This document shows positions 10,262 through 61,912 of a stretch of DNA of 64,000 nt, piece after piece. Under the pieces are notes generated by a model that saw nothing but the letters and a program-made list of their open reading frames with translations, made no database searches and was not told the origin of the DNA. Made by a program: the position numbers and the translations under genes. The stretch's first letter is position 1. Every line of letters begins with the position of its first letter. Origin of the DNA: Myxococcales bacterium (GTDB taxonomy: Bacteria > Myxococcota_A > Polyangia > Polyangiales > Polyangiaceae); the NCBI GenBank assembly GCA_016720545.1, contig JADKKK010000003.1, positions 345,516 to 409,515 on the forward strand, written 5' to 3'.

Positions 10262-11245
10262 GTGGCCCGCCTCCGCGTCGCCTTCGTCGGGCTGCCGCTC
10301 GCGGCGCTCCTGCTCGCCGCGGACGGCCACGACGTGGTGTACGCGGGCATTTGCCGGGATCGCGCGCCGGGCACCCGCCGGCTTCGGGCGCGACTCGGCC
10401 GGGGCCGCGTGTTCGTGAAGCCAAGCCTCACCGCCCACGCCGACCGCGTGCGGGCCCTCGCGCCCGACGTCGTGGTGAGCTGGTTCTGGACTCGCAAGGT
10501 GCCGGCCTCGTTCCGGGAGGCCGCCCGCCTCGCGGCGTTCGGCGTGCACCCGTCGCTCCTGCCTCGCCATCGCGGCGGAGACCCGTATTTCGCAGCCATC
10601 GATGCCGGGGACACGGTGACCGCCGTCACCGCCCTGCTCCTCGTAGACGCCGACGACACGGGGCACGTTCTCGGGCGGCGCGCGCTCACGTTCGACCCGT
10701 CGTGGAGCGCGTGGCGGCTGGCGAAGCGCCTCGATCGCCCCTCGCTCTCGCTGCTCCGGGAGGTGACCCGCGCCTACGCGGAGGGCCGGCCGCCCACGCC
10801 CGAGCCTCAAGACGAGGCGCTCGCGACCGAGGCAGGGCTGCTCTCGGAGGAAGACCTCGAGCTCGATCTGTCCATGACGGCGGAGCAGCTGGCCCGGCGC
10901 GTGCGGGCGGCGAGCCCGTACCCGGGCGCGTACCTGTTCGTGGGCGAGGCGCTCCTCACCATCGTCCGCGCCGAGGCGACGCCGGCCGCGCCGCACGGTC
11001 TTCAGCCCGGCGAGATCGCCGTGGATCCGGGGGGCGCGGCGATCGTCAAGACCCGCGATGGCGGCCTCCGTCTGCTCGCGGCGCGCCTCGCTGACGACGA
11101 CGACGACGCGCCGGACGAAGCGGGCGAGCGCGAGCCGGGGCCGGAGCGGAGCTGGATCGTGGCGAGATCGCCGATCTCGTGCGCGCGCTCGCGCGGGGAG
11201 GCGAGGAAAGACGGTTCCCTTGAACCGAAGGCTTACGTAGACTGA
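10262..11245 (+). CDS. Formyltransferase-family protein (methionyl-tRNA formyltransferase-like)
   Basis: GTG start 7 nt after the DHH stop. VARLRVAFVGLP, VVSWFWTRKVP and HPSLLPRHRGGDP match the Fmt HxSLLPxxRG motif. The Asp-rich C-terminal tail may hide a frameshift. Confidence 0.65.
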   Translation: MARLRVAFVGLPLAALLLAADGHDVVYAGICRDRAPGTRRLRARLGRGRVFVKPSLTAHADRVRALAPDVVVSWFWTRKVPASFREAARLAAFGVHPSLLPRHRGGDPYFAAIDAGDTVTAVTALLLVDADDTGHVLGRRALTFDPSWSAWRLAKRLDRPSLSLLREVTRAYAEGRPPTPEPQDEALATEAGLLSEEDLELDLSMTAEQLARRVRAASPYPGAYLFVGEALLTIVRAEATPAAPHGLQPGEIAVDPGGAAIVKTRDGGLRLLAARLADDDDDAPDEAGEREPGPERSWIVARSPISCARSRGEARKDGSLEPKAYVD

Positions 11246-11295
11246 GGCGCTCGACCATTCGCGCCCCCTCGGCCCCGCAAGAGAGCCATCGGGTA

Positions 11296-12723
11296 TTGAC
11301 TGCCCACGCTGGGATCAGAGCCTCAGGAGAGTGCCCCGTGTCCGACCCCGTGACCACTTCGCGTTCTGCCCGTGAATCCTTGGCTCGTGGCCTCGCCGCG
11401 CTCCAGGTCGACCCAAGCACTCCGCCCGCCATCCTCGAGATAGCAGAGCCCATCGCGCTCGCCATGGGCTCGCTCCACAAAATCGAGAGCTCGCAAGGGG
11501 CAGCGCTCGTGCCCAACGCGGAGACCGCGCTCGGTCACGTGCGGGCCGCGCTGTCGCAGCTCCAGGCGCAGACCTCCGGCCACCCCTCGGTGCCCAACGC
11601 CATGGAGGCGGTCGCGGCGTCGCTCGGCCTCGTGCACCAGCTCTCGAAGATGGTGACCGGGCCGTCGGTCGCGCCGGCCGCGCCGGCCGCGCCGGCCGCG
11701 CCCGTGCAAGTCGCCCCCGTCGCCCCCGCCGCCCCCACCGCCCCCGCCGCCCCCGCCGCCCCCGCCGCGGCAGCGGTCCCACGCCTCGGCACCCAGCCGC
11801 TCGCTCCGGCGATGGCCCCGCGGCCCGTGGCGGCCCCGCAAGCCCCGATGGCCCCGATGGCGCAAGCCCCGATGGCCCCGCAAGCCCCGATGGCCCCGCA
11901 AGCCCCGATGGCCCCGCAAGCCCCGATGGCCCCGCAAGCCCCGATGGCCCCGCAAGCCCCGACGGCCCCGCAAGCCCCGGCGTTCGCTCACCAGCCGGTG
12001 GCTCACCAGCCCGCTCCCCAGCAGGCCCCGCAGTTCGCCCCCCCGCCCGTGGCTCACCAGCCCGCTCCCCAGCAGGCCCCGCTGCAGGCGCCGCCGCAAG
12101 CGTTCGCGCCCCAGCCCATGGCCCAGCAGCCCGCGCCTCCGCAGGCGTTCGCGCCCCAGCCCGTCGCGGCCCCCCAGTTCGCTCCCGCGCAGCAGCCCGC
12201 TCCGCAGTTTGCCGCGCCTCCGCAGCAGCAGCCCACGCTGGCGCAGACCGTGGCGCTCGGCCAGCCCCAGCCCCAGGGTATGCAGCACACGCTCCCGGTA
12301 GCCCCCCAGGCCGCGCCGGACCCGTTCGCGGCGCCCCGCGGCTCCGCTCCCGCGCCTGCGCCCGCCGCCGCCGGAGGCCCAGGCCGGCCGGTGCCGGTGC
12401 TGAACGCCGACCTCGGCGCCCACAGCCCCACGAACTTCTACAAGGGGCTCTCGGGCAACGACGTCGTCGATCACGGCGGCCTGTTCGTTGCAACCTACAT
12501 GATCCCGAAGATCGGCAGCCCAGTGCGGCTGCACGTCTCGCTGCCCGGCGGGTATGAGTTCGACGCGGAGGCGATCGTGCGCTGGGCGCGGGACCAGGCC
12601 GGCAGCTCGGAGAGCGCGCTCCCCGGCTTCGGCGCGCAGTTCACGAACATCTCGCCGGAAGCGCGCCAGCTCATTTACCGCTACGTGCGCAACCGCGAGC
12701 CGCTCTTCCACGACGACCTGTAG
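11296..12723 (+). CDS. PilZ-domain protein with long Pro/Ala/Gln-rich low-complexity region, including 6 tandem PMAPQA hexapeptides
   Basis: Intact 475-aa ORF. C-terminal PilZ-like segment LHVSLPGGYEFDAEAIVRWARD...GFGAQFTNISPEARQLIYRYV. 18-bp DNA repeats at about 11848-11965. Confidence 0.7.
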   Translation: MTAHAGIRASGECPVSDPVTTSRSARESLARGLAALQVDPSTPPAILEIAEPIALAMGSLHKIESSQGAALVPNAETALGHVRAALSQLQAQTSGHPSVPNAMEAVAASLGLVHQLSKMVTGPSVAPAAPAAPAAPVQVAPVAPAAPTAPAAPAAPAAAAVPRLGTQPLAPAMAPRPVAAPQAPMAPMAQAPMAPQAPMAPQAPMAPQAPMAPQAPMAPQAPTAPQAPAFAHQPVAHQPAPQQAPQFAPPPVAHQPAPQQAPLQAPPQAFAPQPMAQQPAPPQAFAPQPVAAPQFAPAQQPAPQFAAPPQQQPTLAQTVALGQPQPQGMQHTLPVAPQAAPDPFAAPRGSAPAPAPAAAGGPGRPVPVLNADLGAHSPTNFYKGLSGNDVVDHGGLFVATYMIPKIGSPVRLHVSLPGGYEFDAEAIVRWARDQAGSSESALPGFGAQFTNISPEARQLIYRYVRNREPLFHDDL

Positions 12724-12754
12724 AGCACCCGTAGTTGCGTAGCAGGCGGCTCGA

Positions 12755-13204
12755 GTGAGCGTCCCGCGCCTCTCCCCGGCGGAGGCTCTGGCCCTATTGC
12801 ATGAGGGTTACACGTACCTGGACGTGCGCTCCGAGAGCGAGTTCGCCGAGGGCCACCCCGAGGGCGCGGTCAACGTGCCCTGGCGCGTGGACGGCCCGAT
12901 CGGCACCCTGCCGAACGAGGCCTTCCTCGACGTGGTCGCCCGCGCCTTCGGCGAGGAGGCGCGGCTCGTCGTGGGCTGCCACTCCGGCGGCCGCTCCCGG
13001 CAGGCCGCTGCGGCCCTCGCCGCCCAAGGGTTCCGCGCGATCGTCGAGCAACGCGCGGGCTGGGACGGCGCGCGCGGCGCGTTCGGCGAGATCGTCGAGC
13101 CCGGGTGGCGGCGCCAGGGTCTCACGCGCTCCACCGCGGGCACCTCGTACGCGGCGCTGCTCGCGTCCTTGGAGCGCGCGCTCCCCGTGGCGCCAGCCCC
13201 CTGA
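12755..13204 (+). CDS. Rhodanese-domain sulfurtransferase
   Basis: LDVRSESEFAEGHPEGAVNVP and catalytic-loop CHSGGRS. Intact. Confidence 0.8.
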   Translation: MSVPRLSPAEALALLHEGYTYLDVRSESEFAEGHPEGAVNVPWRVDGPIGTLPNEAFLDVVARAFGEEARLVVGCHSGGRSRQAAAALAAQGFRAIVEQRAGWDGARGAFGEIVEPGWRRQGLTRSTAGTSYAALLASLERALPVAPAP

Positions 13205-13243
13205 CGCGGCCTCAGCTCCGTGACGCCGTGCGCTCGCGGAGCC

Positions 13244-13861
13244 TCAGCGGCGGGCGCGCTCGTAGTCGGCTGCCGCGCGCTCGACCACCGCGAGGTCGCG
13301 CGCGCTGCGTTCGGCCTCCGCCACGAGGTCGGCCGTGAACATGGTGAGCCCCCAAATGCCGTTGTCGCGCCTACGAAACGCGTACCGCGTGCCGCGCGCC
13401 GTGACGACGCTCGCGCGCTCGCCCTGCTCCTCGACCGAGACCGCGCCCGACAGATCACGCCGGAGGCGGCGGTCCCAACCGCGCTCCTTCGCGTACAGGG
13501 TGAAGACGTCCGCGCCGTCGGCCGCGGCCGCATAGCGCGCGTAGTCGCGCTCGAGGGCGCCACGCTCCCCGTCCGGATACCAGCGCCGCGCGAGGGCGAG
13601 CGCCTTCCTCCGGTTCTCTCCCACCGTGAAGCAGGCCCACTGAGCCTCGGTCTCGAGGTAGGGAAACGCCACCTGGATCTGCCCGTCGGTCAGGCCGTGG
13701 GCGATGCGTACGTACGCCCCCTCGGGGGTGCGATCCGAGGGGAAGGGCCGGTGCACTTTGGCGACGACGCCCGCCGCCACGACCGCGACGAGCACCGCGA
13801 CGAGCGCGACGCGCCGCGCGCCCGACGCACCTCGCGGTCTCGCCTCCTCGCTCGGGCCCAT
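13244..13861 (-). CDS. Hypothetical signal-anchored protein (205 aa)
   Basis: Intact ORF with N-terminal basic segment then a hydrophobic helix VALVAVLVAVVAAGVV. Protein-like composition downstream. Confidence 0.55.
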   Translation of the reverse strand: MGPSEEARPRGASGARRVALVAVLVAVVAAGVVAKVHRPFPSDRTPEGAYVRIAHGLTDGQIQVAFPYLETEAQWACFTVGENRRKALALARRWYPDGERGALERDYARYAAAADGADVFTLYAKERGWDRRLRRDLSGAVSVEEQGERASVVTARGTRYAFRRRDNGIWGLTMFTADLVAEAERSARDLAVVERAAADYERARR

Positions 13862-14936: not shown

Positions 14937-15097
14937 CTAGAGCGCCGAACCGCTTGATGACCGAGGATTTTCGCCGAGTTGCGAGCCGTGCGAGGCGCGA
15001 CGACGAGTCCTACTGCTGCTAGGCGAGGAGGAGCAACGAAAGTACGGCGACGTAAATCGGCGAAAAGCCGACCGAATCAAGCGGTTCGGCGCTCTAG
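14937..15097. repeat. 160-bp palindromic MITE/REP-like element with 22-bp perfect terminal inverted repeats (CTAGAGCGCCGAACCGCTTGAT / ATCAAGCGGTTCGGCGCTCTAG). Lies between convergent gluQ and the kinase gene.
   Basis: Seen directly. Internal complementarity (TTTTCGCCGA / TCGGCGAAAA). A second copy of the right half is at 55470-55548. Confidence 0.7.
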
Positions 15098-16337: not shown

Positions 16338-16501
16338 CGCCGCGGCAGGATACCCGACACGCGAGCGGGCGCGAGCCTGGCGCTCCGTGCGCCAACGGTG
16401 CGTTACCCCGCACTTCCTGCGCCGCCCTCGGAGGAGCCCCGGGGCGCCCTCTCAGGTATCCGCGGGCCGCCGCTTGTCACGCGCCTTGCTTGGGTTGGTT
16501 C

Positions 16502-17839
16502 ATGGGCGACCGCTCGGCTCGCGTGCTCCATCTCGCCGTCTTGGCCGTGGTCCTCGCGACTTCGCAGGCGGGGCGCGGAGCTCCCCCCACCGACGCGTGC
16601 TCGCTGCGCGGCGCCGCGGGCGCCCGGGAGAGCGCCTCGCCGCTCGCCTGGCCGCTCGCGGTGACCCCCGCCTTCGCCGAGCCGAGAGGCGGCGCCCCGA
16701 CGCCCGACGAGCTCGCCGGCGGGTGGACGGGCACGGCCTCAATCACCGCGGCGCGGAGCCCGATGAAGCCCGTGGAGAGCGCGATGGCGCCCCACCTCGG
16801 GGTCGCGAGGGACATCGAAGCGGAGGCGAGCGCGTCGAGCGCCGGGGCGACCTTTGCGTTCGGAGGAAAAGGAAGCGCGTGGAGCTGCCCCTTCACGCTG
16901 GCCCGCGGGACGCTCAGCTGCACGACGCAGGTCTACGGCTACCGCATGACGATGACCGGCGCGCTCACGCGGTCGGGCGGCACGCTCCGGGTGAGCGGCG
17001 CCTGGAGCGCCTCGCAGCCCATGCTCACGCTGCGCGGCTCGTGGAGCCTGGAGAAGCCCTCGAGCGACGTGGAGATCGAGCTGCTCCACCCCGCCGGCCG
17101 GAGCCCGAGGGTCTTCACGTCGGGCTGGCTCTTTGGCGCGCGCTGCGTTCGCGGGAAGGGCACGCCCCGCGAGGTCGACCTCACGGCGGAGGTCGAGTGG
17201 GGTGGCACCGCCACGTTCACGCCGCCGCGCGGGACGCCCGTCCGCCCGCGCTTCGCGACCACGGGCAAGAACAAGCTCACCCTCACCTGCGACGGCGCCA
17301 AGAAGACCTTCGTGATCGAGACGGTCGGCACCGCCCGCTTCGCGCGGATGGGTCACTTGGCCTCCGCCCCTGCTGACGCGCACGGCTGCGGGGCCTGCCC
17401 ACACCCCGCGGTGACGGGGCCGATCGTCCAGGGGAGCCCATCCGTGCTCATCGACGGCTTCCCTGCCGCGCGCGTCGGCGACTACGGAGTGCACGCCGCG
17501 TGCTGCGGCGCCAACACGTTCCGTGTCGCCGCCGGCAACGACCACGGCGTGCTGATCGACGGTCGCCCCGCGACGACGATGGGCGCGCGTACGGTGCACT
17601 GCGGCGGGACCGGGAAGATCATCGAGGGCGCTGCGGGCAACTACGAGCCGCCATCGTTCGCCGAGGAGGCCAGCGGCGGCTTCTTTGGGGTCCCGAGCCC
17701 CGCGCCAGCGCGCGCGCCGGCGACGAGGCCACGCGCCACGGCGTCGTCCACGACGTCGACCGCAGTCGAGCCGCCGGTGGCGGCCGACGTGAAGCTCGAC
17801 GCGCCGGCCCCCGAGGACCTCGCGGCGCAGCGAGCGTGA
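16502..17839 (+). CDS. Secreted protein with C-terminal PAAR-like domain
   Basis: Signal peptide MGDRSARVLHLAVLAVVLATSQA. C-terminal half has two PAAR-type repeats: GPIVQGSPSVLIDGFPAARVGDYGVHAACCG and DHGVLIDGRPATTMGARTVHCGGTGKIIEGAAGN. Confidence 0.65.
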   Translation: MGDRSARVLHLAVLAVVLATSQAGRGAPPTDACSLRGAAGARESASPLAWPLAVTPAFAEPRGGAPTPDELAGGWTGTASITAARSPMKPVESAMAPHLGVARDIEAEASASSAGATFAFGGKGSAWSCPFTLARGTLSCTTQVYGYRMTMTGALTRSGGTLRVSGAWSASQPMLTLRGSWSLEKPSSDVEIELLHPAGRSPRVFTSGWLFGARCVRGKGTPREVDLTAEVEWGGTATFTPPRGTPVRPRFATTGKNKLTLTCDGAKKTFVIETVGTARFARMGHLASAPADAHGCGACPHPAVTGPIVQGSPSVLIDGFPAARVGDYGVHAACCGANTFRVAAGNDHGVLIDGRPATTMGARTVHCGGTGKIIEGAAGNYEPPSFAEEASGGFFGVPSPAPARAPATRPRATASSTTSTAVEPPVAADVKLDAPAPEDLAAQRA

Positions 17840-18423
17840 CGCTGCGCACCGAGCCTGGTGCGACGCGGGTCGTCCGCAACACGCCCGACGGCGCGGCGAG
17901 CCCCGCCTCCGCCATCGCCGTCCTGCCATCGTCGGGAGTCACGAGACGCCCGGAGGGGACGATCCACCTGACGCGGGGCGCGATCGTGGTCACCACGTTG
18001 CCCCCGGCCAAGCAGCTCATCGAGACCGACGCGGGCACGGTGGAGCTCGGCTCGCAGGCGCGCGTCGCGCTAGTCGACGGCGCCGTGGACGTGGCGCTGC
18101 TGGCAGGGAACGCCACACTCCGACCGCGAAGTGGGCCCGAGCTCCGGCTCTCCGCGGGGCAGTCGGTCCGCTTCACAGCGAAGGGGGCGATGGCCCCGCC
18201 GGCGGCGATGTCGCCCACGGAGGTCGGCGACGCCGTGCGCGCCCTGGTCGACCCCAAGGCGGCCGCGGCGACGGCCGGCTCCGAGGAGGAGCTCCACCCG
18301 CTCCTGCGCGACCGGCGGCTGTGGATGGCCCTCGGCGCCGGGGTGGCGATCGCCGCAGCCGTCATGGCGGCGGTGGTGCTCGCCCTCGCGAGCAGGCGCA
18401 AGGGCGGACCCGCGGCCCGGTGA
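17836..18423 (+). CDS. FecR-like beta-sandwich protein with C-terminal TM helix; GTG start overlaps upstream stop
   Basis: LIETDAGTVELGSQARVALVDGAVDVALLAGNATLRPRSGPELRLSAGQSV resembles a FecR domain. C-terminal RLWMALGAGVAIAAAVMAAVVLALASRRKG. Confidence 0.5.
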   Translation: MTLRTEPGATRVVRNTPDGAASPASAIAVLPSSGVTRRPEGTIHLTRGAIVVTTLPPAKQLIETDAGTVELGSQARVALVDGAVDVALLAGNATLRPRSGPELRLSAGQSVRFTAKGAMAPPAAMSPTEVGDAVRALVDPKAAAATAGSEEELHPLLRDRRLWMALGAGVAIAAAVMAAVVLALASRRKGGPAAR

Positions 18424-18483: not shown

Positions 18484-19897
18484 ATGCGCCTCCGCACGCC
18501 CGCTCTTCCGCCTCGCTTGCCACGCTTGCCACGCTTGCCACGCTTGCCACGCTTGCCACGCGCCCTCGGCGCGCTCGGCTTCGCGGCGGCCGTCACCTCC
18601 TCCGCGACCCTCGCCCGCGCCGCCACGCTGGAGGTAGGGCCGGGCAAGCAGTACGCGGAGCTGTCGGCCATCGCCCGCATCGTGAAGCCGGGCGACGTCG
18701 TGGAGGTGCAGGGCGACCACACCTACGCGCCCGTCGAGTTCAACGTGAACGCCACGCAGGCGGCGCCGATCACCATCCGCGGGGTCCGCGTGAACGGCAA
18801 GCGCCCGATCGTGAAGGGCGGCGAGAACACGGTGCTCTTGCACGGAAACTTCTACACTTTCGAGGGCTTCGAGGTCACGGGCGGCACCGGAATCTGCGTG
18901 GTCCACAGCGCCAACGGGGTAACCCTCCGCGACGACGTGATCCACGACTGCCCGCGCCACGGCATCCTCGGGACCGACAGCGAGGCCGGCTCGCTCCTGA
19001 TGGAGTACGTGGAGGTGTACGCGGCCGGCAGCGAGCGCGCCGGCGAGGCGCTGAAGCACCCGGTGTACATCGCGACCAACGAGAGGATGTACCCGAAGTC
19101 GGTCTTCCGCATGCAGCACTGCTACGTGCATGACGCGAACGGCGGCAACTCGGTCAAGTCGCGCGCCGAGCGCAACGAGATCTACGGCAACTGGCTCGAG
19201 GGCGCGCAGTACTACGAGCTCGAGCTGATCGGCCCCGACGACGACAGCGGCGACACGGTCACCGCCCCGCGCGAAGACGGGGACGTCGTGGGCAACGTGC
19301 TCCTCCAGACCAAGTCGACCTCGTACGTCGTGCGCGTCGGCGGCGACGGCACGGGCCGCACTGGCGGGCGCTACCGCTTCGTGAACAACACGTTCATCGT
19401 CGGCAGTCACGCGAACAACGCGGGCGCGATGCGGGCCTCGTACGCGCTCGACTCGCTCGAGCTCTACAACAACGTCTTCTCCAGGGCCTCCGGCCGGATG
19501 GACTACCTCGTCCGCGAGACCGATCTCACCTGGATCGCGGGCCGCCAAATCGCCGGCGCGAACAACTACATCACCCAGGGCTCGGGCAACATCCCCGCTA
19601 CCCTCACCGGGAACATCTTGGGCACCAACCCGGATTCGTGGACCTCGCGAAGAAGGACCTGCGCCTCGCCGCCCCCCCGCGCCGGGTACGCCCGAGCCGC
19701 CGCCCGGGGTGGTGCCCGGATTGCCGGGGCTGCCGGGGGCGAGCGACGACGGGGGACCCGGCAGCACGGCCACCACGAGCTCGGGATGCGGCTGCGGCGC
19801 GGTGGGCACTCCAACCCACTCGCTGCTCGCCGGGGCAAGCCTCGTCGCAGCGCTTGGACTGCTCAGCCGCGCGCGCGCGCGGCGACGCGGTCGCTGA
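18484..19897 (+). pseudogene. Right-handed parallel beta-helix (pectate-lyase-fold) surface protein with MYXO-CTERM sorting signal; frameshifted near the 3' end
   Basis: Signal ...ALGALGFAAAVTSSATLARA. Beta-helix repeats (NTVLLHGNFYTFEGFEVTGG, GICVVHSANGVTLRDDVIHDC, HCYVHDANGGNSV). Tail in another frame [45 protein letters not shown] is a MYXO-CTERM-like GCGC-TM-Arg cluster. Confidence 0.65.
18497..18541. repeat. Perfect 9-bp tandem repeat (CTTGCCACG) x5 at the extreme 5' end or start region of the beta-helix gene
   Basis: Seen directly. Encodes LPRLPRLPRLPRLPR in the gene frame. Confidence 0.9.
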
Positions 19898-41065: not shown

Positions 41066-42199
41066 ATGAGGCAGCTCGTCCAGAAGGCCCGGCGCGTCGT
41101 GGTGAAGGTGGGCTCGCGCACGCTCGCGAGCGACCGCGAGGTGTTCGGGCGGCTCGCCGACGCCGTCGCCCGCGCCCAGGCCGGCGGGCGCTCGGTCGTG
41201 CTGGTGTCGAGCGGGGCCATCGCTCTCGGCGCGAAGAAGCTCGGCTACCCTACCCGCCCCAAGGAGATGGCCAAGCTGCAGGCGGCCGCCGCGGCGGGGC
41301 AGAGCCTGCTCATGCGCGCCTACGAGGAGGCCTTCGGCGCGCGCGGACTCGCGGTCGCCCAGGTGCTGCTCACCCACGCCGATCTCGCCGATCGCGCGCG
41401 GGTCAACAACGCACGCGCGGCGCTGTCCGCGCTGCTCGACGCGCGCGCGGTGCCCGTCCTGAACGAGAACGACTCGGTCTCGGTGGAGGAGATCAAGTTC
41501 GGCGACAACGACCAGCTCTCGGCGCTGGTCGCGCCCCTCGTCGACGCGGAGCTCCTCGTGCTCTTGTCCGACATCCCGGGGCTGCTCGACGCGGAGGGCG
41601 AGCGCGTGCCCGAGGTGCGCGACATCACGAACGAGGCGATGCGCCTCGTGCGGAGCGGGAAGAGCGCCGAGGGCACGGGCGGCATGGCGAGCAAGCTCGA
41701 GGCCGCGCGCCTCGCGACGCTCACGGGCGCGCAGGTGGTCATCGCCGACGCGCGCGCGCGCGACGTGCTCGATCGCGTGCTCGCGGGCGACGACGTGGGC
41801 ACGTGGTTCGTGGCGCCCGAGAAGCGCATCTCCGCGAAGCGCGCGTGGATCGCGTTCACTCTTCGGCCGCGCGGCGCGCTCGTGCTCGACCCTGGCGCCG
41901 CCCGGGCTGTCACCGAGAAAGGCAAGAGCGTGCTCAGCGTGGGTGTGCTGGGCGTGCGCGGCGACTTCCGCGCGGGCGACGCCGTGCGCCTCTTGTCGCA
42001 CGAGGGGGTGGAGCTCGGCCGCGGCCTGTCTCGGCTCGCGGTGGAGGCGGCCACCCGCGTCGCGGGCACCAAGGCGAGCGCGCCCGTCACGCCGAAGGCG
42101 GGCGGGGGCAAGGTCGCGTCGAAGCCCGACGATGACCGCGACGTGCTCGTGCACCGCGACGAGCTCGTGGTGTTCGCGAAGGCGAGCGCCGTCGGCTAG
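41066..42199 (+). CDS. proB: Glutamate 5-kinase (with PUA domain)
   Basis: VVVKVGSRTL, VLVSSGAIALG, ENDSVSVEEIKFGDND, PUA segment. No proA adjacent. Confidence 0.9.
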   Translation: MRQLVQKARRVVVKVGSRTLASDREVFGRLADAVARAQAGGRSVVLVSSGAIALGAKKLGYPTRPKEMAKLQAAAAAGQSLLMRAYEEAFGARGLAVAQVLLTHADLADRARVNNARAALSALLDARAVPVLNENDSVSVEEIKFGDNDQLSALVAPLVDAELLVLLSDIPGLLDAEGERVPEVRDITNEAMRLVRSGKSAEGTGGMASKLEAARLATLTGAQVVIADARARDVLDRVLAGDDVGTWFVAPEKRISAKRAWIAFTLRPRGALVLDPGAARAVTEKGKSVLSVGVLGVRGDFRAGDAVRLLSHEGVELGRGLSRLAVEAATRVAGTKASAPVTPKAGGGKVASKPDDDRDVLVHRDELVVFAKASAVG

Positions 42200-42500
42200 C
42201 TAGTCCCCTGGAGTCGTGGTTCGTATCAGAAGTCCGGTCTTCGGTGTCATGCCGAGGAGCGAGGGGGTGCCCCGTTTTCGGCGGCGGCGGGCCCGTCCTC
42301 AACTCGGACGTCGTTCCGCGCGGTGGAGGCGGCGCTTTGCGCTCAGGGGACAGTGGTTTCGGGTGTGACCGCGCGAGAACGCCGACCCTCGAACATGAGT
42401 ATCCTCCCACCGCCGCCGAAAACGGGACACCCCCTCGCGCCCTTGTGGCGAAAGGCCGAGCCGCGCGACTTCTGGAAGGGATCACGCTTCCAGGGGACTA
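42196..42500. repeat. ~300-bp imperfect palindromic element between proB and the protease gene. Outer arms TAGTCCCCTGGAG / CTTCCAGGGGACTA. Inner 29-bp arms GAGCGAGGGGGTGCCCCGTTTTCGGCGGCGG / CCGCCGCCGAAAACGGGACACCCCCTCGC.
   Basis: Seen directly. Starts with GCTAGCTAG at the proB stop codon. Confidence 0.65.
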
Positions 42501-42574
42501 GGTCTGACCTCATTTTGGCGTCCTCTCGCCCCGCCGCGACTCGCGCGCGGCGCGCGAGCTGCTACATCCCTGAA

Positions 42575-54286: not shown

Positions 54287-55384
54287 GTGACGCGAGCCTG
54301 CGCCTTCCCCGTGGCGGTCCTCGCCGCCGCCCTCGCGTGCGCCACTGTCGGCGCGGAGAAGCGGGCGTTCGCCGACGAGCCGAAGCCCCGTTCCACCGTC
54401 CTGCAGCGCGCCCGCGCGAGCTCAGACCTGCTCGACACGGCGCCCACCATCGCGGCGGTCGAGGGCACATGGTCGATCATGCTCCAGGCCGGCACCCTCA
54501 TGAGCACGCGGGCGTGGCTCGGCCCGTACCCGCGCGGGCTCGCAGCCCACGTCGCCACGCGCGCCCTCTACGGCACCACGTGGTCGGTGATGCTCGCCTC
54601 GGAGACCCTCCTCGCCCTCACCGTCTCGGGCGGCAGCTTCGCGTGGCTCGGCGAGGCCCACTACCGGGCCGATCAGCTCTTCGGCGTCGGCGTGCCCGCG
54701 GGGTGCGGCTCGTTCGGCGCGAACGGCGGCTGCGGGGTGGGGCTGGGCGGCTTCGCGGGGCTCCACGCGCGCCTCTCGGGCTCGCCGGTTTGGGTCGAGG
54801 TGTCGGGCGGCTGGATCCAGCAGCGCGTGGGCACCGACGCCCAGCGCACGCTCGGCGAGTCGACCTGGGTGATGACCCCGATCGGGATCACCGCCGAGGG
54901 CGTGGTGAACCGGGGCGGCGCGGTCGAGCTCCGCGCGACCGGCGGACCCCACCTCCAGTTCGGCATGCACAACGGGCACGTGCACCCCACGGCGCTCGGC
55001 GACGAGACCCTCTCGGTCCCCTGGACCGAGCTCTTCCCCATGCACATGGGCCTCGGGCCGGGCGCGCGCGCCGAGGTGCGGCTCGTGCTTGGCCAGCGGG
55101 TCTCCCTCGACCTCGAGGGCGTCTTCACGCCGCTGCTGCTCTCCAGCACCGAGGAGCACCCGCGGGCCGTCCTCGCGCCGCTCGGCCCCACGGCCGGCCA
55201 GGGATTGCCCACGTGGCGCCGCCTCGCGATAGGTGCAAGCTACATCGATCGCGCCGTCCGCGTGGGCCTCTCGTTCTTCGGCGCGGAGCTGTCGGGGCGC
55301 CCGGTGACCACGCTCGGACACCAGGCGATCGCCCTGCGGCTCGACTTCCCGCTCGGGCTCGACTCCCGCGAATCCAGGCGCTAG
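54287..55384 (+). CDS. Secreted Gly-rich protein (365 aa), unknown function
   Basis: Signal FPVAVLAAALACATVGA. Gly/Cys-rich GCGSFGANGGCGVGLGGFAGL. Confidence 0.5.
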   Translation: MTRACAFPVAVLAAALACATVGAEKRAFADEPKPRSTVLQRARASSDLLDTAPTIAAVEGTWSIMLQAGTLMSTRAWLGPYPRGLAAHVATRALYGTTWSVMLASETLLALTVSGGSFAWLGEAHYRADQLFGVGVPAGCGSFGANGGCGVGLGGFAGLHARLSGSPVWVEVSGGWIQQRVGTDAQRTLGESTWVMTPIGITAEGVVNRGGAVELRATGGPHLQFGMHNGHVHPTALGDETLSVPWTELFPMHMGLGPGARAEVRLVLGQRVSLDLEGVFTPLLLSSTEEHPRAVLAPLGPTAGQGLPTWRRLAIGASYIDRAVRVGLSFFGAELSGRPVTTLGHQAIALRLDFPLGLDSRESRR

Positions 55385-55469
55385 CGCTCCGCGGCCACTG
55401 GCGCGAGCCTCGGGCAAGCCTCGCTCCGACGAGGCCGCCGAGCCTCTGGCTCGTCGAGCAACTCGGGTA

Positions 55470-55548
55470 GCTGCCGAGGAGGAGCGTCGAAGCGCGGCGA
55501 CGCAAATCGGCGGAAAGCCGACCGAATCAAGCGGTTCGGTGCTCTAGG
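55470..55548. repeat. Second, half-length copy of the 14937-15097 element (about 85% identity over about 80 bp: GAGGAGGAGC..CGAAAG..CGGCGACG.AAATCGGCG.AAAGCCGACCGAATCAAGCGGTTCGG.GCTCTAGG)
   Basis: Seen directly. Confidence 0.7.
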
Positions 55549-55628: not shown

Positions 55629-56870
55629 GTGATCTCCTCGAAACTCCCCCGCACCAAAGAAGACCGCGCGATCTTCTTCGACGAAAAGGCCTGGCTGAAC
55701 CGCTGGGACCGGCTGACCGAGGAGGGGAAGAAGCTCAAGCGCTGCAAGCGCTGCCTGTACGGCGAGGATCTCCCGTCCATTAAGTTCGACGAGCTCGGCG
55801 TCTGCAACTACTGCGCGATGCACGACAAGCTCGAGGCCGAGTACCAGACCGGCTCCGAGGCGGCTTCGCGCCGGTTCTCGGAGATCGTGCAGAGCATCAA
55901 GGACGAGGGCCGGGGAAAACCCTACGATCTGGTGGTCGGGGTGAGCGGCGGCGCCGATTCGTCGTACCTCATCCACCTCGCGAAGGAGCGCGGCCTCCGC
56001 CCGCTCGCTGTTCACTACGACAACACGTGGAACTCCACCATCGCGGTGGAGAACATCCATAGCGTGCTGAAGAAGCACGACGTGGAGCTCAACACCTACG
56101 TGGTCGACAACGAGGAGTACGACGAGATTTACCGCGCGTTCCTGCGCTCTGGCACGATCGACCTCGACTGCCCGACCGATCTCGCCCTCGCGACCGTGCT
56201 CAATCGCGTCGCTGAAGAGGTGGGGACGCGCTTCATCTTCGAGGGCCACTCCTTCCAGAGCGAGGGCCTGTTCCCCATCGGCTGGCTCTACATGGACGCT
56301 CGCTACGTCCAGAGCGTCGTCACGCGCCATGGAAACGTGAAGCTCGACACGTATCCGAGCCTCTGGTTGAAAGACCAACTCCGCTGGATGCTCGCGCGGC
56401 GAATCAGGAAGGTACGACCGCTCTGGTATCTCCGGTACGACAAGCCGGCCGTCAAGGAGATGCTCATCCGAGACTACGGCTGGAAGTGGTACGGCGGTCA
56501 CCACCTCGAGAACCGGATCACCTCTTTCTGGCACACCTACTTCGCCCCCCGCAGGTGGAGCATCGACGCCCGCATCGTCGGGCACTCCGCGCACGTTCGC
56601 TCGGGCCTCCTGGGCCGCGACGAGGCGGCGGCCGATATCGAGGGACCTCCGCCTTGCTCCATGGACCAAGTGTTCATGATCATGAAGCGCTGGGGGTTCG
56701 ACCAGGCCCAATTCGAAGACTTGATGACGCTTCCGTTCCACGGGTATCGTGAATACGACACGTACAAGACCGTCTTCGAGAGGGGGCGCCCGTTCTTCTA
56801 CATGCTCGCCAAGCTCGAGCTCATTCCGATGAGCTTCTACGTAAAGTACACGTCGAAGGACAACATCTGA
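55629..56870 (+). CDS. N-acetyl sugar amidotransferase (WbpG/PseA-like PP-loop ATP pyrophosphatase)
   Basis: CxxC...CxxC N-terminus (CKRCLYGEDLPSIKFDELGVCNYC). PP-loop VGVSGGADSSY. Noticeably lower GC and A/T-ending codons compared with neighbours. Confidence 0.7.
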   Translation: MISSKLPRTKEDRAIFFDEKAWLNRWDRLTEEGKKLKRCKRCLYGEDLPSIKFDELGVCNYCAMHDKLEAEYQTGSEAASRRFSEIVQSIKDEGRGKPYDLVVGVSGGADSSYLIHLAKERGLRPLAVHYDNTWNSTIAVENIHSVLKKHDVELNTYVVDNEEYDEIYRAFLRSGTIDLDCPTDLALATVLNRVAEEVGTRFIFEGHSFQSEGLFPIGWLYMDARYVQSVVTRHGNVKLDTYPSLWLKDQLRWMLARRIRKVRPLWYLRYDKPAVKEMLIRDYGWKWYGGHHLENRITSFWHTYFAPRRWSIDARIVGHSAHVRSGLLGRDEAAADIEGPPPCSMDQVFMIMKRWGFDQAQFEDLMTLPFHGYREYDTYKTVFERGRPFFYMLAKLELIPMSFYVKYTSKDNI

Positions 56871-57002
56871 GGAACGAGATCTCGTGAAGTTGGGTTGGTC
56901 CTATTCCCACATGGAGTCGACGCAGATCGCCTGCGTCGAGCAGCTCGCGTCCACGGGGACCGTGCGCGACGGCGCTGCGCAGCGCGATTCGAGAGGTAGC
57001 AA

Positions 57003-58010
57003 GTGAGCGACGCAGGTCTTTCTGAACACTGGAGCGCGGACCGCCTCAAGCTTCCGTCGCAAATCGCCCCCGACGACTACGTGAAGGCCCTCCTCGCGTC
57101 CGTGCCCGAGGAACGATACGACCACTATCGGCTCTACCCTGCGACGGACAAGAAGGGCTGGCAGGAGTTCCGGCGAGAGCGCCTGAGAGACGCGCTCGCC
57201 GACGAGGAGACCGTCTTCTTCGGCGACATCGTAGATGGCTTGGCGCTGGCCGTTGGCTGCAAGCTGCCCAGCTGGGACCTGAACCACTTCGGCTTCCCCA
57301 TCGCGAAGATCACCTGGATGGTCTCGTACAACTTGGCGGGCGCCTCGCGAGTCATGGCGCGCCTCATGGACGAGTGCATGGCGTTCCTCGCGAGCCGCGG
57401 CGTCAAGCTCATCGTCACGAGGGTGGACGGGGACGATCTCGCGAACCTCCACCTGCTCGAAGATCAGGGGTATCGGTACTACGAGAACTCGCTCTGGTCC
57501 GTCATGGACTACTCGAAGATGCCGGCGTCGTTCGAGCGTCCCAACGTTCGCTTCATCGAAGACGCGGACATCGAGCGGGTGCTCGATCTCGCGGGGCGCT
57601 ACCAGTACTCGCGCAGCCACTACTACTGCGACGAGCGCATGGATCGCGCCCGGATCGACGACATGTACCGGGAGTGGTTCAAGACCAGCCTTCGGCGCAA
57701 AGAGCCCGTCATGGTCGTCCTCGACGAGGGCGAGGTCATCGGGGGCATCGTCTACCGGTTCCAGCCTTCGCTCTCGAAGCATCTGGGCCACAACTACGGC
57801 CAGCCCCACCTCATGATGATCGAGCCCCGCTCGCGCGGGAAGGGGCTCGGCATGGCGATGTTCCAGGGGAGCATGTACCTCATGTCGACCCTCGGCTCCA
57901 CGTGGCTCGACACGGGCCTCGCGAGCAGGAATCACCCCTCCGCGCGCACCACGATCACCTCGGGCTTCCGCCCCGTCTACGAGGAGATCACCTTCCACCG
58001 TTGGCTCTGA
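57003..58010 (+). CDS. GNAT-fold acyltransferase (two-lobed, sugar N-acyltransferase-like)
   Basis: C-terminal GNAT core VMVVLDEGEVIGGIVY...PRSRGKGLGMAMF. Lower GC, like the amidotransferase. Confidence 0.55.
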   Translation: MSDAGLSEHWSADRLKLPSQIAPDDYVKALLASVPEERYDHYRLYPATDKKGWQEFRRERLRDALADEETVFFGDIVDGLALAVGCKLPSWDLNHFGFPIAKITWMVSYNLAGASRVMARLMDECMAFLASRGVKLIVTRVDGDDLANLHLLEDQGYRYYENSLWSVMDYSKMPASFERPNVRFIEDADIERVLDLAGRYQYSRSHYYCDERMDRARIDDMYREWFKTSLRRKEPVMVVLDEGEVIGGIVYRFQPSLSKHLGHNYGQPHLMMIEPRSRGKGLGMAMFQGSMYLMSTLGSTWLDTGLASRNHPSARTTITSGFRPVYEEITFHRWL

Positions 58011-60380: not shown

Positions 60381-60829
60381 GCGCTCTAGCTAGCTAAGCT
60401 AGTCGCTGCGCTTTCGGCTCCGGGACCGCTTGCTCCGGGTCCGGCACCTCAGGCTTGGGGCCGGTCACTTTTTTCCCTTTCTCGGCCGCCTCTCGCTCCC
60501 GCTCCGCGCGCTTTGCGATGGCCTCCGCGGGCGGGCCTCACTTCCAGGTTCGCCATCGCCCGTGGTGAAGCGGTTGAAGCGGTCGCCGCGGTGGAGATCG
60601 CCGCCCACGCGGGGGACGCCACCCAAGAAGCGGCCGACCGATGCGTCGTCCTCGGGGATCGGTTGGTGGCGCTCCTCACGGGCCTCATCCGCCGCTGAGG
60701 GTTCGCGCTCGCCGCCCGCGGCTTCGGGTCGCGGTCGCGGTCGGGGGTCGGGGTCGCGGTCGGGGGTCGCGGGTCGGGGTCGCGGTCGGGTGGCGTTGGT
60801 CTTTTCCCGACACACTCCTAGCTAGAGCG
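60381..60829. mobile_element. ~450-bp MITE-like element bounded by perfect 12-bp inverted repeats CGCTCTAGCTAG / CTAGCTAGAGCG. Contains hexanucleotide (GGGTCG/CGGTCG) repeats and a small RP/DP-rich ORF (60465..60815, minus strand).
   Basis: Seen directly. Termini share GCGCTCTAG with the 14937-15097 family. Confidence 0.55.
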
Positions 60830-61736
60830 ACGTGTTCATCACCGCGCGCGTGACGGTGTCGGCCACGAGGGGGTACTTGTTCGCGCTCAAGGGCACCGGG
60901 AACGCCACCCCGGTGAGCTTGCAGCCGGCCTTCGCGCCGGCGAACTCTACCAGCCCGGTGCCGGGCGTGACATTGGAGATGAACACGTTGGCGCCGCGAT
61001 CGCCGGCGCTGGCGGTGAGCGCGAGGTTCGGGTTGAAGGAGCCCGAGTCGGCGTACTGAACCACGGCCTCCGGGTGGCCCGGGATCGTCACGACGAAGCC
61101 GCTCGCGTCGCAGGTGGGCTCGGCCCTGTTGATCACCAGGTAGAAATGGGCCTTCGCGGCGTTGTAGGTGGCGTCGAAGGACCCCATGGTCGTCTTCGCG
61201 AACACGGAGACGTCGGTGTCGGTCCGCACGCCGGGGGGGAAGTTGTAGACGACGCTCGCGCTCTTGTAGAAATCCGCGGGGTTCGTGGACGTCACGAGCA
61301 GGTAGTGGTTCACGCCAGTGGTCGGAGTGAAGCGCACGCGCGAGCCGGCGTAGGGGAGGGGCGCGCTCGTCCCCTGGCACGCGTCCACGAGCTGGATCGA
61401 GGTCTTGCCGCTGGGGTCGGTCCCGCTGTTCGCGGGGTTGAGCTTCACATCGGTCGCGCCCTTGTCGGTGCACGCGCCGGCCTCCGTAGGAGCGTCGGGC
61501 GAGGCGTCGACTGGCGGGGGTGCATCGGGCGTGGCAGCGTCCGTCGCCGTCGCTGACGCGTCGGGGGTCGGCGTGGTGGTCGTCGTCGTCGCCGTCGTCG
61601 TGGTCGTCGTGGTCGGCGCGGGGCCCGCGTCGGTCGCGGCCGGATCGCTGCTGCAGGCGCCGAGGGGCGCGAGGGGCGCGATCGCGCCGACGGCGAGGAG
61701 GGCGAGCAGCGGACGCTTCAGGGTGAAGTTGTGCAT
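60822..61736 (-). CDS. Lipoprotein with poly-Thr linker (304 aa)
   Basis: LAPLGACSS lipobox. TTTTTTTATTTTTT encoded by a (GTC)n tract. CTAGCTAG sits at both gene ends (60818, 61744). Confidence 0.6.
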   Translation of the reverse strand: MHNFTLKRPLLALLAVGAIAPLAPLGACSSDPAATDAGPAPTTTTTTTATTTTTTPTPDASATATDAATPDAPPPVDASPDAPTEAGACTDKGATDVKLNPANSGTDPSGKTSIQLVDACQGTSAPLPYAGSRVRFTPTTGVNHYLLVTSTNPADFYKSASVVYNFPPGVRTDTDVSVFAKTTMGSFDATYNAAKAHFYLVINRAEPTCDASGFVVTIPGHPEAVVQYADSGSFNPNLALTASAGDRGANVFISNVTPGTGLVEFAGAKAGCKLTGVAFPVPLSANKYPLVADTVTRAVMNTSL

Positions 61737-61912
61737 GAGGCCTAGCTAGGGGGGGGCGAGTGAAGGTGGGTACAAGCATACGCGGCCGAGGCGGAGAGGC
61801 AACCGAACATCGAGCGCCCGCGAGGAGCGGCGAACGCAGCGATGCGAGGCGGGCCGGGCGCGGCGAGCTTGGAGATTGCGCCACGCCTCGCGCGGCGCTA
61901 CGAGGTCCGGGG

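Follow-up and report, generated by a model that had tools for sequence, protein, structure and literature searches.

The window analysed here is a 64,000-nucleotide stretch of contig JADKKK010000003.1 (positions 345,516 to 409,515) of a Myxococcales bacterium from the family Polyangiaceae (GCA_016720545.1). It contains four exact copies of the palindromic octamer CTAGCTAG, a tandem of two CTAG tetranucleotides. One copy lies at the end of proB, and the other three lie within 1.4 kb at a lipoprotein gene. Two of these three flank a single mobile-element remnant, and the four occurrences are therefore not independent of one another. Three of the four coincide with boundaries of transposable elements, namely one MITE (miniature inverted-repeat transposable element) and the two edges of one insertion sequence (IS) remnant. 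At least three families of CTAG-flanked elements are present in the window: an IS1182-family element and two families of MITEs, here designated MITE(a) and MITE(b). The features are collected in Table 1, where the intact element used for comparison is that of a closely related strain, GCA_963852875.1.

The octamer is expected 0.09 times per window on average, and none of 100 dinucleotide-preserving shuffles gave four copies. An earlier note on this DNA had claimed that the sequence should occur less than once in 64 kb and is nevertheless repeated, and these counts bear it out. Plain CTAG is depleted threefold in the window (29 occurrences against 88.8 expected), and eight of the 29 belong to the four octamers. 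Variants of CTAGCTAG with one mismatch are not enriched (five against eight expected), which identifies the signal as exact tandem CTAG. Twelve of the 29 CTAGs are the boundaries of four elements (the IS remnant, MITE(a) and two copies of MITE(b)), one is internal to MITE(b), and two form an octamer with no adjoining element, the orphan octamer of Table 1. The octamers recur in independent assemblies of the same organism, among NCBI metagenome-assembled genomes (MAGs) and in contigs from JGI, ENA and Logan.

The octamers had also been placed at gene boundaries, and this holds for the proB stop, the lipoprotein stop and the region just before the lipoprotein start codon. The positions 42196 and 60818 are correct as first given, whereas the tandem run spans 60386-60402 (not 60385-60400) and the upstream octamer begins at 61742 (not 61744). 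The further claim that the octamer carries a stop codon in all six frames is wrong. TAG occurs at offsets 1 and 5, and frame 0 (CTA GCT AG) stays open on each strand; CTAGCTAG closes two of the three frames per strand, or four of six in total. The 17-mer CTAGCTAGCTAAGCTAG at 60386-60402 closes all six.

Table 1. Octamers, mobile elements and the lipoprotein gene in the window.
Feature	Position	Strand	Description
Octamer 1	42196..42203		First CTAG holds the proB stop codon TAG (42197-42199); second CTAG flanks MITE(a) on the left; same sequence in seven other assemblies
Octamer 2	60386..60402		CTAG array CTAG-CTAG-CTAAG-CTAG (exact octamer 60386-60393) at the truncated edge of the IS remnant
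Octamer 3	60818..60825		CTAG 60818-60821 adjoins the IS terminal repeat; CTAG 60822-60825 holds the lipoprotein stop codon (60822-60824, minus strand)
Octamer 4 (orphan)	61742..61749		Inside the 10-nt palindrome CCTAGCTAGG, 5 nt upstream of the lipoprotein ATG (61736); in all five assemblies of the species
MITE(a)	42204..42497		Non-coding; CTAG flanks 42200-42203 and 42498-42501; 302 bp with flanks; imperfect terminal inverted repeats begin TCCCCTGGAG / TCCCCTGGAA
MITE(b)	14937..15097		161 bp; perfect 22-nt terminal inverted repeats CTAGAGCGCCGAACCGCTTGAT, beginning CTAGAGCGCC; single CTAG at each end
Partial MITE(b)	55381..55547		Right half alone aligns; CTAG at 55381 and 55544; left CTAG holds the TAG stop of the open reading frame (ORF) ending at 55384
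IS remnant	60403..60817		Decayed IS1182-family insertion sequence; one end lost, internal 1.2-kb deletion (BLAST to the intact element)
Transposase gene fragment in remnant	60404-60530	minus	100% identity over 127 bp to the middle of the intact transposase gene
3' end of passenger gene in remnant	~60548-60698	plus	23S_rRNA_IVP family
Repeats in remnant	~60699-60790		GGTCGC/GGGGTC
Terminal inverted repeat of remnant	60806-60817		CCCGACACACTC, the surviving terminus
Lipoprotein gene	60822..61736	minus	304 aa; signal peptide; lipobox LGAC; resident gene, no cassette

CTAG-flanked elements and their ends

The nature of the remnant is apparent from the corresponding locus (L001) of GCA_963852875.1, a strain 99.8% identical to the window, in which 2.5 kb take the place of 0.4 kb of the window. 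There, the lipoprotein gene, with the end ...TCGCT-CTAG, is directly followed by an intact element of 2,496 bp (10913-13408) and then by another CTAG. The termini of this element pair, GAGTGTGTCGGG at 10913 with CCCGACACACTC at 13397-13408. Its transposase of 466 aa scores 350.4 bits on the NCBIfam model NF033551 (IS1182), above the cutoff of 270, and matches the Pfam families DUF772, DDE_Tnp_1 and DDE_Tnp_1_6, while a small second gene matches 23S_rRNA_IVP. Both the family model and the terminal inverted repeats at the two ends place the L001 element in IS1182. The window copy aligns with it over 60548-60790, which comprises the end of the IVP gene and the repeat (96.7% over 244 bp by BLAST), as well as over the transposase fragment. 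This copy is a non-functional remnant with one terminus and no complete member of the family, and it is common to three assemblies. The two strains differ in the number of CTAG units at two places: L001 has one unit fewer than the window in the array at 60386, and at the position of octamer 3 it has a single CTAG with the intact IS directly after it.

The L001 element carries extra parts, namely the passenger gene, which encodes a 23S_rRNA_IVP-family four-helix bundle, and a ~200-bp GGGGTC/GCGGTC repeat on both sides of the transposase gene. The passenger gene and the repeat make it ~0.9 kb longer than its relatives in Telmatobacter. Between the IS and the native flank of L001 (13409-13469) lie CTAG-CG-CTAG, a unique stretch of 42 nt and then CTAG-CTTAG-CTAG. 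The 42-nt stretch had no match in any fetched sequence; it may be the last trace of another CTAG-flanked element.

Relatives of the IS were fetched from species-representative genomes with the L001 transposase as query. In the complete genome of Telmatobacter bradus, the left end reads CTAG-GAGTCTGTCG in all 16 copies, and the right ends displayed read CGACAGACTC-CTAG in 14 of 15 copies and have CTAA in the remaining one. The flanks of these copies are otherwise unrelated, with no further duplication. Acidobacteriota, Gemmatimonadota, Rokubacteria and others supplied about 40 more copies, among them a miniature derivative of 130 bp (L030), and every recognisable end of these adjoins CTAG. The same termini recur in more than 50 copies elsewhere. 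In acidobacterial genomes, arrays of CTAG-containing heptamers, (CTAGTCC)n and (CTAGAAG)n, are insertion sites of related IS (L075 9900-9930 and 11555-11620; L039; L072 15715-15750), and the sole CTAGCTAG in 342 kb of Telmatobacter sits in such a heptamer array.

MITE(a) and MITE(b) are short and non-coding and have terminal inverted repeats, as is characteristic of MITEs. MITE(a) contains two pairs of inverted repeats, a terminal one of 35 nt (I2, 80% complementary) and an inner one of 36 nt (I1, 92% complementary). proB ends ...GGC TAG, and the next four bases, CTAG, open the element. MITE(b) is found in two copies in the window, one of them partial. At the window loci, both elements are present in all assemblies of the species; several assemblies break inside MITE(a), and assemblies also break at MITE(b). 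No autonomous partner of either was identified.

Metagenomes were scanned with a MITE(a) terminus pattern that did not include CTAG, which gave at least 118 contigs; the following counts refer to the 123 pattern matches listed. CTAG precedes the terminus in 82 of the 123. The other ends include several one-base variants, such as GTAG, CGAG, CTGG and CCAG, and where a copy has both of its ends on the contig, each is flanked by CTAG or such a variant. MITE(a) is therefore a multi-copy element with a constant flank, found on these contigs and represented by 13 left ends of the proB-copy subfamily at different loci. More widely, the terminus TCCCCTGGA(A/G)NCGTG defines a large superfamily with several subfamilies from soil, rhizosphere, sediment and sludge (L108-L225), in which the flanking CTAGs have often decayed to CCAG, CTGG or GTAG.

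The MITE(a)-bearing contigs connect the octamer with element ends outside the window. Within 558 kb of these contigs, there are 357 CTAGs and two copies of CTAGCTAG, and both octamers directly adjoin left ends of MITE(a) (L188 and L211). In the proB-copy subfamily, CTAG is doubled at three of 13 left ends and at none of 10 right ends, with a per-position chance of less than 0.001 for a CTAG. The three doubled copies (the window copy, L188 and L211) occupy different loci and are not alike at internal diagnostic positions, which implies that the doubling arose more than once; the internal haplotypes likewise dismiss a master copy behind the doubled elements. L208 and L211 share the flank GCGGCGCT and were considered as an allelic pair with single and double CTAG, but they are different loci. 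The octamer had been suggested to be the terminal motif of a MITE family. Its link to mobile elements is confirmed, but the constant terminal feature is a single CTAG, and the doubled form is no fixed terminus. The sludge samples behind the window (Ga0073904, Ga0209476) also yielded about 121 kb of the MITE(a) contigs. In the resulting ~185 kb of this organism, the octamer at 61742 is the sole one without an adjoining element, which is about the level expected by chance, and the over-representation of the octamer is therefore accounted for by element junctions.

CTAG within a gene requires an in-frame TAG, the leucine codon CTA or an NCT-AGN codon pair, all of which are disfavoured at high GC content on both strands. 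On a rough gene map based on GC at third codon positions (GC3), most of the 29 CTAGs of the window lie outside confident coding sequence or at TAG stops. Elements are situated exactly at the CTAG stop of three genes: proB, the ORF ending at 55384 and the lipoprotein gene. In a genome of ~72% GC, CTAG survives mainly at TAG stops and between genes, and the elements consequently land at gene ends. In very GC-rich genomes, CTAG-specific elements would thus be directed to gene ends and cause little damage there.

The lipoprotein gene and other parts of the window

Homologues of the lipoprotein with 77% (L102), 64% and 60% (L103) identity allow the native state of the locus to be described. The genes of L102 and L103 end TCGCTCTAG, followed by unrelated sequence, and GTAG closes that of the 64% homologue. 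The lipoprotein stop therefore lies in a CTAG that is native to the host, and the other CTAG of octamer 3 is consistent with a duplication. All homologues keep the downstream order of a convergent 208-aa gene and then 365-aa, 109-aa, 341-aa, 224-aa and TRL-domain genes. The gap downstream of the lipoprotein gene is 52 bp in the relatives, and it is this gap that received the IS remnant, as a simple insertion. None of these 60-77% identical relatives has an octamer at an orthologous position.

The earlier note had seen the lipoprotein gene as bracketed by octamers in the manner of a cassette, with the gene itself or the block 60381-60829 as a possible insertion. The gene is resident, since it stays linked to its downstream neighbours in relatives devoid of octamers, and the 10 kb on either side have no domain called as integrase or recombinase; a gene cassette was rejected on these grounds. 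The block, for its part, does contain an insertion, that of the IS remnant. The AGCG/CGCT extension of the 12-nt inverted repeat that surrounds the octamers at the two edges of the remnant was considered as a MITE(b) terminus and dismissed, as it is native flank in the relatives.

Upstream of the lipoprotein gene the arrangement is different. The relatives have a VF530 gene there, and the window has an ABC transporter operon that is located elsewhere in the relatives. On the ABC side homology ends near 61858, on the lipoprotein side at about the ATG. The orphan octamer thus lies at a synteny breakpoint, where a species-specific spacer of 108 bp (61750-61858), which it borders, separates two blocks that relatives do not have side by side. 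No CTAG is found upstream of the start codon in the lipoprotein homologues, and the alignment of the 5' region with them is too weak to tell whether the octamer represents a 4-bp insertion. The orphan octamer fits the scar of an element-mediated event, a fit that falls short of proof. The 108-bp spacer was examined as a MITE remnant and rejected, as it resembles neither MITE(a) nor MITE(b) significantly and has no match in the fetched loci.

The adjoining leader (61858-61912), upstream of the gene for a NitT/TauT-type ABC ATPase, is conserved in relatives as GAGATTGCGCCA...GGCGGCGCTACGAGGTCC (L226 4500-4553; L227 69-107). It may be a regulatory RNA or an operator; no Rfam family matches the window at the gathering threshold, the leader included. 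The closest named relatives of the ATPase are from Polyangiales and Myxococcales MAGs.

Other differences between strains concern sites unrelated to the octamers. A segment of 1.43 kb (16414-17844) is absent from seven other assemblies and is bounded by GCAC microhomology, with no CTAG; the ORF across it has PAAR motifs, and the segment is a strain-variable PAAR (toxin-tip) region. At 19668-19673, the assemblies with sequence on both sides (L092-L095) have ~224 extra bases within a Pro/Gly/Ala-rich stretch that appears to be coding, an indel unrelated to CTAG. The GC content of 56000-58000 is 0.61-0.64, against ~0.72 elsewhere, and this stretch may have been acquired horizontally.

Origin of the doubled CTAG

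Taken together, it is probable that the octamers are by-products of CTAG-specific mobile elements. The simplest reading of the constant flanks is that CTAG is the target and would be duplicated on insertion. A 2-bp duplication agrees better with the Telmatobacter copy that has CTAG at one end and CTAA at the other, and CTAG flanks by themselves fit a duplication of either 2 or 4 bp. A doubled CTAG could then be produced in three steps. An element would insert at CTAG and duplicate it; its later loss would leave CTAG-CTAG, that is, CTAGCTAG; and a new insertion into one of the two copies would give CTAG-CTAG-[element]-CTAG. This route of excision and reuse, proposed from the comparison of sequences, is a serious possibility that stops somewhat short of being likely. 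The reuse of sites is suggested by the difference in CTAG units between the 99.8% identical strains and by the Telmatobacter IS, which twice adjoins the same repeated sequence ending ...CCGCT-CTAG. No function of the octamer is required, and both its closure of reading frames and its palindromic form would be side effects of the CTAG target.

Several observations weigh against this explanation. A clean pair of empty and occupied alleles was not found in metagenomes or assemblies: a metagenome scan for an empty allele (the lipoprotein stop, CTAG, 0-30 nt and the downstream native flank) gave no match, and no metagenome contig was found with MITE(a) at a site that is empty in the window. The remnant of the window is oriented opposite to the intact IS of L001, and the two alleles differ by several unreconstructed steps. 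CTAGCTAG is nearly absent where related IS are active in many copies (one in 342 kb of Telmatobacter, none in 542 kb of other loci); the doubling is therefore no automatic product of this IS clade, and excision scars, if formed, are rare there. Orphan scars are scarce, and octamer 4 adjoins no element. The doubling in MITE(a) is confined to left ends, which reuse of sites does not predict, although the numbers are too small for significance. Finally, slippage at a tetranucleotide repeat could give the same changes of +4 bp.

Slippage can also be taken as a full alternative, in which (CTAG)n is a microsatellite that changes by replication slippage independently of transposition and is merely a good target for transposons. 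The window and L001 differ by exactly one unit inside the near-repeat CTAG-CTAAG-CTAG of the 60386 array, CTAG tetramers are inserted or deleted among Frankia strains (PMC6735867), and IS of the acidobacterial relatives insert into the heptamer arrays described above. Nevertheless, the step from one CTAG to two has no repeat on which to slip. In the window and the metagenome contigs, four of six octamers adjoin an intact element terminus and a fifth, at 60386, is at the truncated edge of the remnant, an association that slippage alone does not predict, even if it may act within the array at 60386; the single orphan in ~185 kb does not exceed chance. We regard slippage as the origin of the octamers as unlikely. 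The restriction to left ends (three of 13 against none of 10 right ends) would be explained if a sub-lineage of MITE(a) or the IS had absorbed an old flank, so that each of its insertions appears doubled at that end. The three doubled copies differ in internal haplotype over the first 110 nt and do not form a sub-lineage, and a carried CTAG would leave both the orphan at 61742 and the 60386 array unexplained. This explanation appears even weaker than slippage.

Two further proposals assign the octamer a function. As a perfect 8-bp palindrome (10 bp at 61742), it could delimit a mobile gene cassette as a recombination site or serve a dimeric DNA-binding protein as operator; two octamers bracket the lipoprotein gene, perfect 12-nt inverted repeats are found at 60382-93 and 60818-29, and CTAGCTAGCTAG was taken as inverted repeats around a transposable unit in Frankia (PMC6735867). 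On the other side, the lipoprotein gene keeps its downstream neighbours in octamer-free relatives, and the AGCG/CGCT of the 12-nt repeat corresponds to TCGCTCTAG of these relatives. No integrase or recombinase is called within 10 kb, no Rfam family matches the window, and the 558 kb of related contigs have octamers at MITE ends only. Such a role, to judge from these data, is very improbable, and there is nothing that speaks for the binding of a protein. The proposal that the octamers were selected as stop-codon insulators against read-through across element boundaries draws on the closure of all six frames by the 17-mer at 60386-60402 and on the overlap of two octamers with real stop codons. 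As the 8-mer leaves two frames open, the earlier note's all-frame insulation of translation fails for it; moreover, in relatives and in L001 one CTAG is enough to supply the stop at both genes, and the pattern is explained without any benefit. There is hardly any reason to expect selection of this kind.

Comparison with known systems

The L001 element shares with other members of the IS1182 family, which are related to IS5 and include ISPsy36, a DDE transposase recognised by NF033551, DUF772 and DDE_Tnp_1, short terminal inverted repeats and a palindromic tetranucleotide on both sides. For ISPsy36 the reported target is GGCC, and for ISPsy32 it is CTAG repeats (PMC8027508); the clade described here differs from ISPsy36 in its use of CTAG. 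Compared with the Telmatobacter IS of ~1.6 kb, the L001 copy of 2.5 kb has in addition the 23S_rRNA_IVP-family gene and a long repeat that encodes Pro-Asp.

Elements of the IS630/Tc1-mariner group move by cut-and-paste, a process that may leave the donor site with a few additional bases. They resemble the elements of the window in their preference for CTAG, and an insertion of the form C-TA-[G...C]-TA-G also reads as CTAG flanks, with CTAGCTAG as the product that loss of the element would give. Among the references listed in PMC2170065, IS630 is described as targeting TA within CTAG. The transposase found here, however, is not of the IS630 type.

Like bacterial MITEs in general, MITE(a) and MITE(b) are short, non-coding, multi-copy and intergenic; they end in inverted repeats, beside which stands what would be a constant duplication. 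Apart from the CTAG flank, the two families have no terminal resemblance to the IS1182 element. What is new here is a CTAG-specific IS1182 member and two MITE families in an uncultured bacterium of activated sludge, probably Polyangiales-like, and no new kind of system is required. The results also guard against misannotation, in that the palindrome should not be taken for a regulatory or recombination signal, or the lipoprotein gene for a cassette.

Apart from one paper on Frankia (PMC6735867), the literature found on CTAGCTAG concerns primers and microsatellites. In the high-GC Frankia of cluster 2, polymorphic arrays of CTAG tetramers together with CTAGCTAGCTAG were reported to 'enclose' the nod operons, with transposases adjacent and no mechanism given (PMC6735867). 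As in the window, CTAGCTAG and CTAG arrays are at operon boundaries beside transposases, and their copy number varies between strains of more than 99% identity. The Frankia arrays were read as inverted repeats that bound transposable units, whereas the arrays described here are tied to the ends of CTAG-flanked elements, and the gene that they bracket is immobile. It is conceivable, though we consider it doubtful, that cut-and-paste IS1182-type elements and MITEs truly left CTAGCTAG and (CTAG)n behind as excision scars, sealed by end joining, and that the rare targets of high-GC bacteria are used repeatedly to give growing CTAG pads at gene ends. Such pads would mark rearrangement junctions such as that at 61742 and would explain the nod arrays. 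If doubled CTAGs are excision scars, they would provide a cheap marker of past transposition and end-joining repair in uncultured bacteria like the Polyangiales, and the arrays of Frankia would find an explanation in the same process.

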